DNA of 64,000 nt, from the IMG/VR virus record IMGVR_UViG_3300027983_002389; one strand, 5' to 3'. The notes under the pieces were generated by a model, which ran no database searches, was not told the origin of the DNA, and saw nothing but the letters and a program-made list of their open reading frames with translations. A program made the position numbers and the translations under genes. Shown one piece after another: positions 2,839 through 55,262 of the stretch. Source of the DNA: a virus (lineage: Duplodnaviria > Caudoviricetes). Positions within the stretch are counted from its first letter, which is position 1. Every line of letters starts with the position of its first letter.

Positions 2839-3269
2839 TGTTCAGACCAGCAGGAAATTTTGCATATTTCACCAAGGAAGGTCACGAAACCATTGCAGCT
2901 ACGGCGAGCATGGCTTTGACTCATTGGTATATGAGAAAGCTGCCCAAGCTGGACGACATTCCTGACCCATTGCCAGTTCTTGAAGTGATACCGATTGCAA
3001 GGCCCTTTCCTGGACCATACGATCAAAATTTTTTGCCGGTCGTAATCGGCTGCATCGAGAGAACTTACGGAACGGCACCAGAAATCGCTCCCGTATTTTT
3101 GAGTCGAGAATGGTACAATAACTTACCAGAACGCCTTAACGACCATAAGATTGTCGTTCAGGCTCGTCGTGATGCCGACCCTAAAGTGGTCGCTTACGAG
3201 GAAGTTTGTCTGAGTATCCTCAAGTGGTTGGCAAAGTATGGAGACGTTATTGACCTGGAGGAACCTTGA
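2838..3269 (+). CDS. hypothetical protein
   Basis: TAATG overlap with upstream stop; SD GAGGGG. Confidence 0.6.
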   Translation: MFRPAGNFAYFTKEGHETIAATASMALTHWYMRKLPKLDDIPDPLPVLEVIPIARPFPGPYDQNFLPVVIGCIERTYGTAPEIAPVFLSREWYNNLPERLNDHKIVVQARRDADPKVVAYEEVCLSILKWLAKYGDVIDLEEP

Positions 3270-3289
3270 GCGTATACTTGGATTGCACA

Positions 3290-3460
3290 CAAAAGAAAAA
3301 TTTGCCGGAAACCTGAAGTTGACTTTACAAGGATGGAAAGTCGTGGTAGAATGAATGACACAACGCTGACGGAACCCGATAACGAATCAAAAGAAAAATT
3401 TGCCGGAAACCTGAAGTTGACTTTACAAGGATGGAAAGTCGTGGTAGAATGAATGACACA
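3290..3460 (+). promoter_or_regulatory. duplicated sigma70-like promoter (73-bp direct repeat)
   Basis: 3290-3362 = 3388-3460; each has TTTACA-17-TAGAAT with TG extended -10 (3324-3352, 3422-3450). Confidence 0.8.
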
Positions 3461-3461
3461 T

Positions 3462-3551
3462 GGCGGGGTAGCTCAGTCCGTTAGAGCATTGTGAATAGGG
3501 ACCGAAAGGTTTACTAACATAAGGTCGGAGGTTAAAATCCTTCCCCTGCCA
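3462..3551 (+). ncRNA. tRNA-like RNA with hairpin insertion in the anticodon loop
   Basis: Acceptor GGCGGGG/CCCTGCC-A, D and T arms present; anticodon stem TTGTG/CATAA encloses 24 nt containing GACC-GAAA-GGTT. Confidence 0.7.
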
Positions 3552-3555
3552 CTTA

Positions 3556-3852
3556 TGTCCTGCGATGAGCAGGAACAGATGGTGATTGTGGCCCCAACTC
3601 TCGCAAGAGAAGGGGGCTGGTTCAACACAGTCTAAGAATATAGTGACCCGACTCCAATAGAGGCATGTGCATAGTCTGAACAACGAAGCATGTGCTGATC
3701 CGGGTAGGTTGCTTCGGCGACCAAACACTGTATTTGATATTGGAGCCATCGAACGCAAACGACGGTTTGAACCCGTCAAGAACTTGTGAGTCAAATGCCG
3801 TCAGGACTACATTTGCAAAACGAACGTCTTGGCAATTATTTGTTGACTTGCA
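3556..3852 (+). ncRNA. putative structured non-coding RNA
   Basis: No credible ORF; hairpins TCTC-GCAA-GAGA and GGTTGC-TTCG-GCGACC; closing GATGGT/GCCATC. Confidence 0.45.
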
Positions 3853-3857
3853 TTTAT

Positions 3858-3978
3858 GGGTTGGTAGCTCAATGGCCTGTTTACAGGGAGGCAGATTATA
3901 TTGATCGTAAGGTCAGTGTAATCACTTCAGAGCGCCGTAGTAATACGGAGGTAGCTGGTTCGATTCCAGCCCGGCCCA
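3858..3978 (+). ncRNA. anticodon-less tRNA-like RNA (GUAA tetraloop, D-loop hairpin insert)
   Basis: GGGTTGG/CCGGCCC-A; D stem GCTC/GAGC with long insert; CCGTA-GTAA-TACGG; GCTGG-TTCGATT-CCAGC. Confidence 0.75.
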
Positions 3979-3982
3979 CTAT

Positions 3983-4184
3983 GGGGAAGTATTAGAATCC
4001 AACACAGAGCCGTTGGAGTGGAAAAGCAGTCTAGGTTCACGGAGCAATCCGCATGTGAATGTTAATGGGGCAACTTACCGCTCATTCTAGCGAGGCCAAC
4101 TCATAAACATGAACCAAGAGGGGCGACTCTCGAATGACTGCCGAGAATACTTCGGTGATGCTGGTTCGAGTCCAGCCTTCCCCA
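3983..4184 (+). ncRNA. about 200-nt RNA with tRNA-like acceptor stem and T arm
   Basis: GGGGAAG/CTTCCCC-A; GCTGG-TTCGAGT-CCAGC; large internal region. Confidence 0.65.
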
Positions 4185-9571: not shown

Positions 9572-9648
9572 GGGTGTGATCGTCTAGGTTGGTCTAGGAC
9601 ACCCGCCGTTTGAGGCGGGAGACATGGGTTCAAATCCCATCACATCTT
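9572..9648 (+). tRNA. tRNA of undetermined type (Glu-like body, 8-nt loop CGTTTGAG)
   Basis: Good acceptor, D and T arms; abnormal anticodon loop. Confidence 0.6.
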
Positions 9649-9659
9649 CGCAACTTTGT

Positions 9660-51565: not shown

Positions 51566-52789
51566 ATGATTCGTCCAATCCCACTCGCTCATGGCGTCGG
51601 GTTTTTCTCAATGGATCGTTTGCCGCAATATGCTGGCAAGTATCGTGAGGAAAATGTGGGTCGCTATTGGAACTACTATGTCACGCCAGAGTGCCAAGAG
51701 TGGCCAGAGGCGGTGACGTACAAAGGTCCGTATGTGATTGACGGGTTTTCCCCCAATCTCAATAAGAGCCTGCACGTCGGGCATCTACGTCAATTGGCTT
51801 TGGCAAAGTCTTTGGAGAGCATTATGAACCATGCTCAACAAAATCCTCACGCCAAGTTTGTATCCCTATTGGGCGCATCTCAGGGAGTTTTTCAATACGC
51901 TACTGAGCAACTGAATGGTTGGTTCGACTTCTTGAACTTCCATCCTGAATTGCACTATGACGTATTGATGCCACGAGATCAGGAGATCGTTCCTCGTTAC
52001 AAAACCAAGGTGCCAGTCTCTATCTCAACTGACTTTAACGGTAAGCCTTTTGAACATGAGGAAGAGTGTGAAGTGTGGGCCGGTCCCAAAGGGCCTGTGA
52101 TCGTCGTTCGTTGGGATGGTCGTCCTTTGTATGCCTTTCAGGACATTGCCTTCTCGAAGGTGGTGGGTCCAACTCACTACATCACTGGCACGGAGCAGCA
52201 GGAGCATTTTGCCAACCTGGGGCTTGGCGATAAACATCTGCCTATGGGTCTTGTATTGGGTGCTGACGGCAAGAAGATGAAGTCTCGTACTGGCGATAGT
52301 GTCACAGCTAAAGAAGTATTGGATCAGATTGTTTCTCAGCTTGATCCAACAGATGAACCGAACAAGCTGGCGTGGAATGTATTGGCGTGGAATTTTCTTC
52401 ACGTCGCTCGTTCCAAGTCGGTGAAGTATACCCCGGAAGAATGGACAAAGTCGGATGCTCCGGGCATGTATATTTCGTATACTTATGCTCGCATTCAATC
52501 GGCTTTGGCTGGAGAGTCTTTTGAAGAAGGCGATCTGACACAATCAGATGCAGATTTGTTGGGCTTGGCTCGTCAGCACGCCTACGCCTTGCAGCGTAGC
52601 ATTGATTCTCTCGATCCGGCAATGTTGGCAAATTACGCTTACGATCTGGCATCCAAGCTGGGTACGGCATATCATGGGGAAAAGATCAAGGGTGGACGCC
52701 CAGGCTTTAAGAACGCCTTGATGCAAGCGGTGTGGCATCTTCGTTTGTGTATGCACCAACTTGGCATGTTTCCTTTGGAGAAGATTTAA
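51566..52789 (+). CDS. argS: reduced arginyl-tRNA synthetase
   Basis: FSPNLNK.LHVGHLR, EQ..HF, KMKSRTG, Y..YTYARI.S, DALR-like C-terminus. Confidence 0.85.
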   Translation: MIRPIPLAHGVGFFSMDRLPQYAGKYREENVGRYWNYYVTPECQEWPEAVTYKGPYVIDGFSPNLNKSLHVGHLRQLALAKSLESIMNHAQQNPHAKFVSLLGASQGVFQYATEQLNGWFDFLNFHPELHYDVLMPRDQEIVPRYKTKVPVSISTDFNGKPFEHEEECEVWAGPKGPVIVVRWDGRPLYAFQDIAFSKVVGPTHYITGTEQQEHFANLGLGDKHLPMGLVLGADGKKMKSRTGDSVTAKEVLDQIVSQLDPTDEPNKLAWNVLAWNFLHVARSKSVKYTPEEWTKSDAPGMYISYTYARIQSALAGESFEEGDLTQSDADLLGLARQHAYALQRSIDSLDPAMLANYAYDLASKLGTAYHGEKIKGGRPGFKNALMQAVWHLRLCMHQLGMFPLEKI

Positions 52790-53648: not shown

Positions 53649-54222
53649 CTAAACGTCGATAAATCGTTCGTAGCCTTCTTGTCGATGTATTAGTGTTTGC
53701 TTGTGGACTATTTCGATTTCATCTTTTACAAGATCGCTTTTGATGAAAATCAGATCATGGCCAACATATTCCACCAAAGTATATCCTTTGTGTTTTCCTA
53801 GTTTTCTCATTGCTTCAAACGAAGCACCATATGCTACATCTCCTGTCCATCTGTGTTCAGAGTCGTATTTCAGAGCTACGCATTCTGTGGTGAAATTAGC
53901 GTTGAATTCAATGATTACCATTCTTGGATTGTGATTTAACGCTTTCCATACCGATAGATAAAAGATCAAATTCGGGTGGTATTTTATATTTTGAAAATAT
54001 ATCGTTTATGTTTTCTTGGTTGATCGCTTCTTGATGCACGTCATTTGAAGCGACCAAATCAAATTGGATTAACGACCATCCTAATGACTCAAACATTCGT
54101 ATATTTGAATATTCCCAGCCATCGGCAGCACCAAACTCAACAGCTATTTTGTTTGTAGTGCCGATTTTATCGAACCATTTTTGGGATAATAAATCTAGGT
54201 TTGATCTCGAATAACTTTTCAT
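53649..54222 (-). pseudogene. FkbM-like methyltransferase broken by internal deletion and frameshift
   Basis: VEFGAADG...FDLLSI in one frame, VWKAL..PR...IEFN in another; the usual DIDGNDY segment is missing. Confidence 0.65.
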
Positions 54223-54297
54223 TTTCCGCCCTTTACAAAAACTTTTTTTCATGCTATGATAGATAAGTTCAGCAAACCTTTTTTTGGAGAAACTACT

Positions 54298-55165
54298 GTG
54301 AGTAAGAGCAAGACTAAGCACAAAATGTACGCAACTGGCAGCACTGGCAGCACTGGCAGCACTGGCAGCACTGGCAGCACTGGCAGCACTGGCAGCACTG
54401 GCAACAACTCGGCGTCGGGCTGTCTTTAGCAATCCAACCACTCTCCTCCTCGAACTTCATGGCGGGGAAGGCGGCGAAGATTCTAAGTTATTCGTTGCCG
54501 ATTTACTTGAAACCTATCTCAAATATGCTTCCATCAACGGCCTTAAATACGAAGTATTGACCCAAGAGCATGGCCACGCCATTGCCAAAGTCATGGGCAA
54601 GGGCGTTTGGAAAGCATTTCAAAACGAGCCGGGTAAGCACGTCGTGCAACGTGTACCTCCCACTGAGCGAAGTGGTCGTCGGCAAACATCCATCATTACG
54701 GTTGCTGTGATGCCGTTGCCTCCTGAGAACACTCAGGAGCCGCTTGATGAAAAAGACCTGAATATTATCTGCCAGACGGGCAAGCAAGGCGCAGGTGGAC
54801 AAAACGTCAACAAGGTGGCGTCTGCTGTTCGCATGAAGCATAAGCCAACTGGAATGATGGTCTTCATTAACGGACGAGATCAAAAGCAAAATCTTGATGA
54901 GGCTTTGCGAATTCTGACCTTCAAAGTCAATGAGCAAAAACGACTCAAGGTCGAGGGTGATTACAATCAGTCTCGGAGAACTCAAATGTTGAGTGGTGGA
55001 GACAGAATTGGCGGTAGAGGCGATAAAGTTCGCACCTACAACTTCATTCAGTCTCGTGTGGTCGATCACAGGCTTGGTCGCAAGACCTCGAACGTCAAAG
55101 AATTCATGAAAGGCAATTTTGCCCTTCTGTTTGATGGGGATACCGCAGGTCAGGGCGAAGAGTAA
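54298..55165 (+). CDS. RF1-type class I release factor, expressed via putative +1 frameshift at 54424-54430
   Basis: LE...GEGGEDS.LF, VQRVPPTE..GRR.TS (PxT), GAGGQNVNK, KVRTYNF; GGAGA SD and GTG 54298 are in a different frame. Confidence 0.85.
54334..54403 (+). repeat. (ACTGGCAGC)n, about 7.8 copies, in-frame TGS repeat
   Basis: Direct reading. Confidence 0.95.
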
Positions 55166-55213
55166 TTTGTAAAATTTCGTGGTAGCTTAATTTTAGCTTA
55201 ATTGAGCCGATCT

Positions 55214-55250
55214 AATGAGCCGATCTACGGATAGATCGGCTCATTTTGTT
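55214..55250 (+). terminator. intrinsic terminator
   Basis: AATGAGCCGATCTA-CGGA-TAGATCGGCTCATTTTGTT. Confidence 0.8.
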
Positions 55251-55262
55251 CCTATATAACAC

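Follow-up and report, generated by a model that had tools for sequence, protein, structure and literature searches.

A gene of a huge, tailed freshwater phage probably forms a single-gene unit encoding an RF1-type release factor without domain 1 (here called mini-RF1), which would be made through a +1 slip at CUU-UAG-C, with its synthesis inversely coupled to the speed of UAG decoding; we give this reading a probability of roughly 0.7. The gene lies in a stretch of 64,000 nucleotides, referred to below as the window, from the IMG/VR record IMGVR_UViG_3300027983_002389 (Caudoviricetes). Comparison at the sequence level demonstrated the requirement for the shift, the conservation of the heptamer, the likeness of the predicted protein to RF1, and the co-occurrence of a CUA tRNA.

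In the proposed mechanism, ribosomes would start on a 43-codon leader and arrive at CUU-UAG-C, where one of three outcomes may follow. First, UAG would be read for release, by host RF1 and probably by mini-RF1 too, yielding a 43-aa peptide. Alternatively, the CUA suppressor tRNA of the phage would read UAG, after which frame 0 would stop 18 codons on, a dead end. Finally, the peptidyl-tRNA-Leu in the P site would slip from CUU to UUU, so that AGC (54428) would become the next codon and the 288-aa factor would be produced. It is from these three fates that the inverse coupling of factor synthesis to the speed of UAG decoding in the infected cell would arise. The logic of prfB would thereby be moved onto an RF1-type gene.

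Layout of the gene in the window

The features of the locus, all on the plus strand, are as follows.

54232..54260, plus strand: promoter-like site TTTACA-17 nt-TATGAT with an extended TG, 10/12 matches
54286..54290, plus strand: Shine-Dalgarno sequence GGAGA of the leader ORF, aligned with GGAG-N9-ATG in the closest relative (L004) and with GGAGG-N7-ATG in the Obscuribacter copy
54298..54429, plus strand: frame-0 leader ORF of 43 codons, ending in Gly-Cys-Leu and then UAG
54334..54403, plus strand: 9-bp tandem repeat ACTGGCAGC x7.8, perfect, read as Thr-Gly-Ser in frame 0
54424..54430, plus strand: shift heptamer CTT TAG C, with CTT-stop in 35/35 relatives and +4 C in 30/35
54428..55165, plus strand: +1-frame body of a predicted short RF1-type factor, 245 codons, domains 2, 3, and 4 (Pfam, NCBIfam, and PDB RF1 chains)
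54430..54486, plus strand: frame-0 continuation past UAG, 18 codons to TAA 54484-54486
54656..54664, plus strand: PPT tripeptide (P-x-T codon-reading motif) within QRVPPTERSGRRQTS
54794..54802, plus strand: GGQ catalytic motif
55214..55255, plus strand: intrinsic-terminator-like hairpin (hairpin 55214-55245) of 14 pairs with a T-rich tail

The GGAG core of the Shine-Dalgarno sequence (54286-54289) lies 7 nt (7-8 nt) upstream of GTG 54298. This GTG is taken as the leader start, because its counterpart in the alignment is the ATG of close relatives, and their leaders likewise begin with M-S-K, as is seen in the window, L004, and the Obscuribacter copy. ATG 54325 is a second candidate start in frame 0. 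ATG 54256 was rejected, since it falls inside the -10 box and the promoter-like site places the transcript start downstream of it; a -10-like box, TAGAAT, is found at the equivalent place in L004 and in another close relative, L005. The promoter-like site and the terminator-like hairpin bracket the gene, which is therefore suggested to be a single-gene unit. On the minus strand, two ORFs that overlap (53649-53969 and 53908 to approximately 54222) are divergent from the RF gene and may be parts of a single gene interrupted by a change of frame; of the ORF calls there, the longest extends spuriously into the RF leader.

In frame 0, the leader ends in GGC TGT CTT (54424) TAG (54427) C, and the continuation beyond this stop is a predicted dead end that would be translated only upon UAG suppression. 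In the +1 frame, TGA 54299-54301 is followed by an open stretch from 54302 to TAA 55163-55165. Its translation reads ...AVF SNPTTLLLELHGGEGGEDSKLF... PPT ... GGQ, and its first ATG, GTG, or TTG is TTG 54557, within the conserved body, so that the full product is predicted to have 43 + 245 = 288 aa. The positions of GGAG, GTG 54298, ATG 54325, CTT 54424, TAG 54427, and TTG 54557 agreed with a preliminary description of this DNA, and the frame structure confirmed that a +1 shift would be required to read the whole gene.

No indel artefact, a possibility raised in that description, was detected. A 299-kb contig (L101) of an independently made ENA assembly is identical at the site and differs by 36 bp only, corresponding to four fewer repeat units with the frame kept. 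Logan contigs from four runs of four studies (two freshwater, one estuary, and one soil) contain the same sequence, with no inserted or deleted letter. They match positions 54374-55250 (54407-54645 in the soil run), with depth up to 343x, and break at the leader repeat only. No RNA run was among the sequencing runs listed with this sequence. Because the site is identical across independent assemblies and the contigs of four studies, it is not an artefact. The repeat itself varies in copy number, with 7.8 units in the window versus 3.8 in the sister assembly, and hence leaders of 43 versus 31 codons, while the frame is unchanged.

Conservation and identity of the gate stop

Relatives were gathered from a phage-database match, IMG/VR, further assemblies, and genome-collection contigs, which gave 35 loci needing a frame change; a rescan of IMG/VR by DNA pattern returned the same 14 contigs again. 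In all 35 loci, CTT directly precedes the first frame-0 stop, which is beyond chance, and the base after the stop is C in 30 of them. The gate stops are TAG (20 loci), TGA (14), and TAA (1), plus the first site of L001, described below. These relatives are 43-87% identical, and their leaders are unrelated, except that they often begin with MSK and have Cys-Leu at the end, whereas the body is conserved and stop-free across the family. In L004 and L005, for example, the bodies are almost the same, yet the leaders and the stops (TAA and TAG, respectively) differ, with TGT CTT T in both. Conservation of CTT-stop-C among relatives with unrelated leaders therefore argues for a real prfB-style +1 programmed frameshift in a family of RF1-like paralogues. 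The prfB-like CUU-stop-C shift put forward in the preliminary description is thus required by the frame structure and conserved in 35/35 loci; of the full CTT-TAG-C, CTT-stop and mostly the C are kept in homologues, but the stop varies between TAG, TGA, and TAA.

Protein data point in the same direction. The 120 nearest protein clusters are all 150-293 aa long with ragged N-termini, the output to be expected from gene callers where a real start appears to be absent. Forty-three of the calls reach upstream, and 40 of these 43 read x-Phe-[Asp/Glu/Ser], which is the +1-frame footprint of NNC TTT GAN or AGN. Among the metagenomic protein calls with this footprint, 36/40 are of the TGA type and 4/40 of the TAG type.

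Several members show other arrangements. The best phage-database match, LR756511 (L001, 52% identity), has tandem gates (L001 1370-1452; LR756511.1): ATG...GTG TGT CTT TAA C is followed 15 codons on, in the +1 frame, by CGT CTT TGA C, where a further +1 step leads into the RF body. Its sister locus, L012, has the second gate only, the first site reading CTT TTC in frame. Two members (L109 and L110) are ungated, with plain in-frame ATG starts, and the TGA-recoded phages LR756501 and LR756502 also have plain starts. In L011 (1465-1500) and L018 (1480-1500), a 4-10-codon leader is followed by an in-frame TGA without any frameshift; no UCA tRNA was found in these phages, and their code looks standard. 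Both are candidate UGA-readthrough gates, a device stated to be unknown for bacterial-type release factor genes (PMC5009743).

In a phylogenetic tree, all mini-RFs form one clade with support of 100/100, separate from cellular RF1, and the family is monophyletic. Copies from Obscuribacterales form one clade within it and those from Pirellulaceae two, with phage copies interspersed. A metagenome scan with the family alignment yielded only cellular full-length RF1 genes of 35-44% identity, which served as the outgroup. Gated mini-RF genes occur in MAG contigs of Obscuribacterales/Melainabacteria (all CTT TAG C; L185 6187-6924, on a Ca. Obscuribacter phosphatis scaffold, and L121, L135, L136, L146, L163, L169, and L182), of Pirellulaceae (TAG or TGA; L131-L153), and of others. 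The Obscuribacter copy has GGAGG, ATG, a 19-codon leader beginning with MSKN, and CAC CTT TAG C; its neighbors are sigma/anti-sigma, MsrAB, and peptidase genes. In two Obscuribacterales genomes, the mini-RF is located on the same 0.76-1.1 Mb contig as full-length prfA, and prfB is present too. Given these chromosomal gated copies in bacteria, the family is not restricted to phages.

The site resembles the prfB +1 frameshift (SD-N3-CUU UGA C) in having a leader of about 20-40 codons, CUU in the P site, a stop in the A site, C at +4, and the body in the +1 frame, and in that the gated gene itself encodes a class-I release factor. It differs in that the window gene is RF1-type and its stop is UAG. 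In a 2025 survey of 12,753 genomes, 8,164 prfB motifs were reported, with TGA in 98.6%, TAA in 1.4%, and no TAG, and no programmed shift was found for prfA (PMC12421855). Other differences are that the mini-RF1 site precedes domain 2, domain 1 being missing, that stop identity varies across the family, and that the hyper-conserved SD-like AGGGGG located 3 nt upstream of CUU in prfB is missing in the window and most relatives. The internal SD of the window had already been described as weak, and its anti-SD duplex energy of -3.5 kcal/mol indeed equals background (median -3.3). SD-like stimulators were not enriched across the family sites (Mann-Whitney p=0.30), a strong element being present in only about a quarter of them (AGGGGG in L019; AGGAG in L015 and L017). 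RNA folding around and after the site gave z-scores of +1.0 and -1.2, with no stimulatory structure evident, and Rfam contained no relevant family for the site; one weak Rfam miRNA match, on the leader repeat, was rejected as spurious. In view of the lack of an SD-like stimulator and of significant flanking RNA structure, the shift at CTT TAG C may be inefficient.

An alternative is a pure attenuator, in which a constitutive +1 shift of low efficiency holds a possibly toxic factor low and the identity of the stop is incidental, with no meaningful sensing. We consider this unlikely, although several observations agree with it: the stop differs even between the near-identical bodies of L004 and L005, most sites have no SD-like stimulator, and some members (L109 and L110) have no gate at all. 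Nor did the gate stop covary with the PxT motif, as PPT occurs with TAG, TAA, and TGA, and the tripeptide variants PHL, PDN, PKN, and PHT are scattered in the family. Within clades, however, the stop is stable, being TAG in 7/7 members of the Obscuribacterales chromosomal clade and TGA in all of L010, L014, and L108. Moreover, any CUU-stop site is mechanistically sensitive to its cognate release factor, as established for prfB (PMC12421855), and retention of the +4 C, the weakest termination context, is what would be expected if release-factor competition matters. The joint conservation of CUU, stop, and +4 C thus argues that competition with release factors does matter.

Whether the gate senses the activity of its own product must be considered separately. 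The preliminary description had noted that UAG matches the specificity of this factor itself, but as a family rule this failed: gates are TAG in 20 loci, TGA in 14, and TAA in the remainder, and PPT is unchanged whatever the gate. UGA is not expected to be read by an RF1-type factor, and since many relatives with PPT are gated by UGA, self-feedback cannot be what the gate is for in general. In the 20-kb samples examined, the gate stop also showed no clear link with GC content, stop-codon usage, or the rarest stop. In contrast to the family at large, the window subclade (the window, L004, L005, and L102) has TAG or TAA gates only, that is, RF1-cognate stops, and both this subclade and Obscuribacterales fit the idea that a CTT-stop shift with feedback uses a stop matching the specificity of the factor. 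Negative feedback on UAG termination, as proposed earlier, is hence plausible for this gene and its closest relatives, but is not a family rule because of the many UGA gates. Such a loop would depend on the efficiency of the shift and on mini-RF1 releasing peptides at UAG and UAA, both of which we infer.

The predicted protein and its neighborhood

The product is predicted from domain matches to be an RF1-type class-I release factor that consists of domains 2-4 without domain 1. Pfam matches were PCRF with 84 bits (positions 101-194 of 194, the C-terminal half) and RF-1 with 72.6 bits. With NCBIfam models, prfA scored 210 bits (positions 105-336 of 347), prfB 129, and prfH 51 (51.3), all of these matches being under the cut-offs (400 and 423 for prfA; 166.65 for prfH, TIGR03072). 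Comparison with PDB chains gave 127-143 bits for RF1, 69-86 for RF2, and 49 for PrfH, and the matches to solved RF1 structures settle the fold. Together with the presence of PPT and GGQ, these scores upheld the RF1-type assignment made at the outset, as well as the loss of domain 1 (about 105 residues), since the prfA match covers 105-336 only. When QRVPPTERSGRRQTS of the window is aligned with VQRVPATESQGRIHTS of RF1, the P-x-T motif, not SPF, and the Gln and Thr third-base readers are present; Gln-Arg-Val-Pro-x-Thr-Glu (Q-R-V-P-P-T-E here), Thr-Ser, GGQ, and the switch loop are all kept. One loop of domain 2 is 6 residues shorter than in RF1, and the His of the RF1 HTS is replaced by Gln. 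This His, H197 in E. coli RF1, was reportedly found to be essential by Field and colleagues in 2010. Because this residue is Gln here, the peptide release by mini-RF1 at UAG and UAA is no more than putative.

Canonical RF1 (prfA) is accordingly the best HMM and PDB match and has the P-x-T motif, the Gln/Thr-Ser third-base readers, GGQ, and the switch loop in common with mini-RF1. Apart from the missing domain, the score of 210 bits versus a cut-off of 400-423, the Gln for His, and the shorter loop, mini-RF1 differs from it in forming a separate long-branch clade, in occurring in bacteria as an additional paralogue next to full prfA and prfB, and in its gate, prfA having no known programmed frameshift (PMC12421855, PMC5009743).

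The window also holds an HD-domain gene, an AAA ATPase, and the following two genes.

51566-52789: short arginyl-tRNA-synthetase-like gene, 407 aa, with a partial catalytic domain and DALR; 80-86% identity in L004 and L005
57569-58495: RlaP, RNA-ligase-associated Pol-beta nucleotidyltransferase (PF10127)

Five separate lineages have RlaP 1-3 kb downstream from the mini-RF: the window, L004/L005 (about 3180-4117), L008 (L115 12707-13840), L014 (3305-3661), and L187 (4374-5288). This proximity hints at a tie to RNA repair or ribosome rescue. Contigs L225-L227 (window-equivalent about 73-102 kb) contain two RNA ligases (PF09414 and Rnl1-like PF09511), PARP, ADP-ribosylglycohydrolase, and NUDIX genes, as well as two CsrA genes, a ClpX-like ATPase, and a sigma factor; this region is rich in RNA-repair and conflict genes.

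Mini-RF1 might accordingly be a ribosome-rescue component of an RNA-repair module, comparable to PrfH with RtcB, and not a factor for general termination; the gate would switch it on when ribosomes stall at stops under ribotoxin attack. The known domain-1-less RF homologues are all rescue factors (PrfH and ArfB; PMC6514570, PMC9304027), and, besides the recurrent RlaP, RNA ligases (PF09414, Rnl1-like) and NUDIX lie within about 40 kb. PrfH in particular shares with mini-RF1 the lack of domain 1 and the status of an accessory paralogue, and RlaP near mini-RF1 is itself an RNA-repair gene. PrfH, however, has neither PxT nor SPF and recognizes damaged decoding centers, whereas mini-RF1 keeps the full stop-codon-reading apparatus (PPT, Gln, Thr-Ser, and the switch loop) and scores only 51 bits against the prfH cut-off of 166.65. 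Furthermore, no adjacent RtcB was found among the ORFs scanned within about 3 kb on either side, and the Obscuribacter chromosomal copy lies amid unrelated housekeeping genes. We therefore regard the rescue function as improbable; the likeness to RFH-like factors pointed out in the preliminary description, which concerned the missing domain 1, does not extend to codon reading.

Translation without any frameshift, with the body read from a non-canonical or internal start (a CTG of the repeat or TTG 54557), or else a decaying pseudogene or an assembly error, is highly improbable: CTG codons are present in the +1 frame of the repeat and internal starts are chosen by gene callers, but a start at TTG 54557 would remove the conserved GGEGGEDSK helix, relatives do not have the leader repeat, the site does not differ between independent assemblies, the family-wide CTT-stop conservation would be left unexplained, and in L001, L009, and L012 the body frame opens just 2-4 codons upstream of the site, which leaves no room for an upstream start and makes initiation there in the body frame impossible.

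Suppressor tRNAs and the meaning of UAG

Between 6221 and 31072, the window carries 40 tRNA genes, all on the plus strand; the tRNA at 9572-9649 has an odd, two-base anticodon call, and no tRNA-Leu was detected in the window. The same phage has a CUA tRNA (L227:17592-17662) about 45 kb downstream from the mini-RF1 gene, at a position equivalent to about 99.3 kb in window numbering. L227 belongs to the assembly of a sister sample and was reached by a contig walk from the window via identical proteins. On the contig of the closest relative, two CUA tRNAs (L202:1011-1084 and 1708-1778) are found about 52 kb downstream of its mini-RF. Four further mini-RF phages have at least one CUA tRNA each and none has a UCA tRNA; one relative, G005, also has a UUA tRNA. 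Besides L227 and L202, the contigs with CUA tRNAs are L208, L113, L216, L217, and L221. CUA tRNAs were thus present in 5/5 relatives tested, all of them mini-RF-bearing.

The possibility of an alternative code was rejected in the window as well as in five relatives, among them TGA-gated ones and those with in-frame TGA. The window genome uses the standard code, in which TAG is the rarest stop but still ends genes, and no excess of in-frame TAG junctions was observed in the window; suppression would therefore be selective. With a CUA tRNA in the same phage, the UAG of the gate is probably contested by release, suppression, and slippage. The UAA gate of L004, the closest relative, is unreadable by a CUA tRNA.

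Recoded phages also carry RF1 or RF2, with no frameshift gate described (Borges et al., bioRxiv 10.1101/2021.08.26.457843). Like the present phage, they combine a class-I factor with suppressor tRNAs and genes for aminoacyl-tRNA synthetases. There, factor and recoded stop are complementary, with RF1 found where TGA is recoded and RF2 where TAG is, whereas here the RF1-type factor and the CUA suppressor would be antagonists in a standard-code genome. A further parallel is a giant-virus (Megavirus/Mimivirus) gene for an eRF1-type factor that needs readthrough and frameshifting (PMC5009743). That factor is likewise virus-encoded and dependent for its synthesis on recoding at stops, as may be compared with the UGA of L011 and L018 and the tandem sites of L001, but its family, the eRF1 of eukaryotes and archaea, has no relation to bacterial RF1, and its signals are different.

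A broader proposal, which we put forward tentatively and consider doubtful as yet, is that mini-RF1 and tRNA(CUA), both encoded by the phage, act as antagonists and together decide between stop and sense at UAG during infection. The gate would then be a three-way sensor of release, suppression, and slip, with factor synthesis being self-limiting and switched off once the suppressor dominates, and stop-gated mini-RF1 would represent an undescribed third lineage of class-I release factors common to huge phages and some bacteria. No paper describing a frameshift-gated RF1-type factor was found in the literature, and the mini-RF1 family goes unmentioned in reviews on the evolution of release factors and on jumbo phages. 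The link of mini-RF1 with amber suppressors and RNA-repair genes, tallied in mini-RF carriers only, is also new.

The +1 shift at CUU-stop is the textbook case of RF2 autoregulation. An RF1/UAG counterpart was stated to be unknown in a 2016 recoding review (PMC5009743), and its absence has been used to argue that the device is RF2-only (PMC12421855; PMC5009743). The present family uses the device in an RF1-type lineage, with all three stops, in huge phages and on bacterial chromosomes. It offers a natural set of variants on which to test how frameshifting is tuned by SD elements, by the identity of the stop, and by its +4 context, and points to an unstudied release factor without domain 1. Together, mini-RF1 and amber-suppressor tRNAs suggest that phages manage the meaning of UAG without full recoding.
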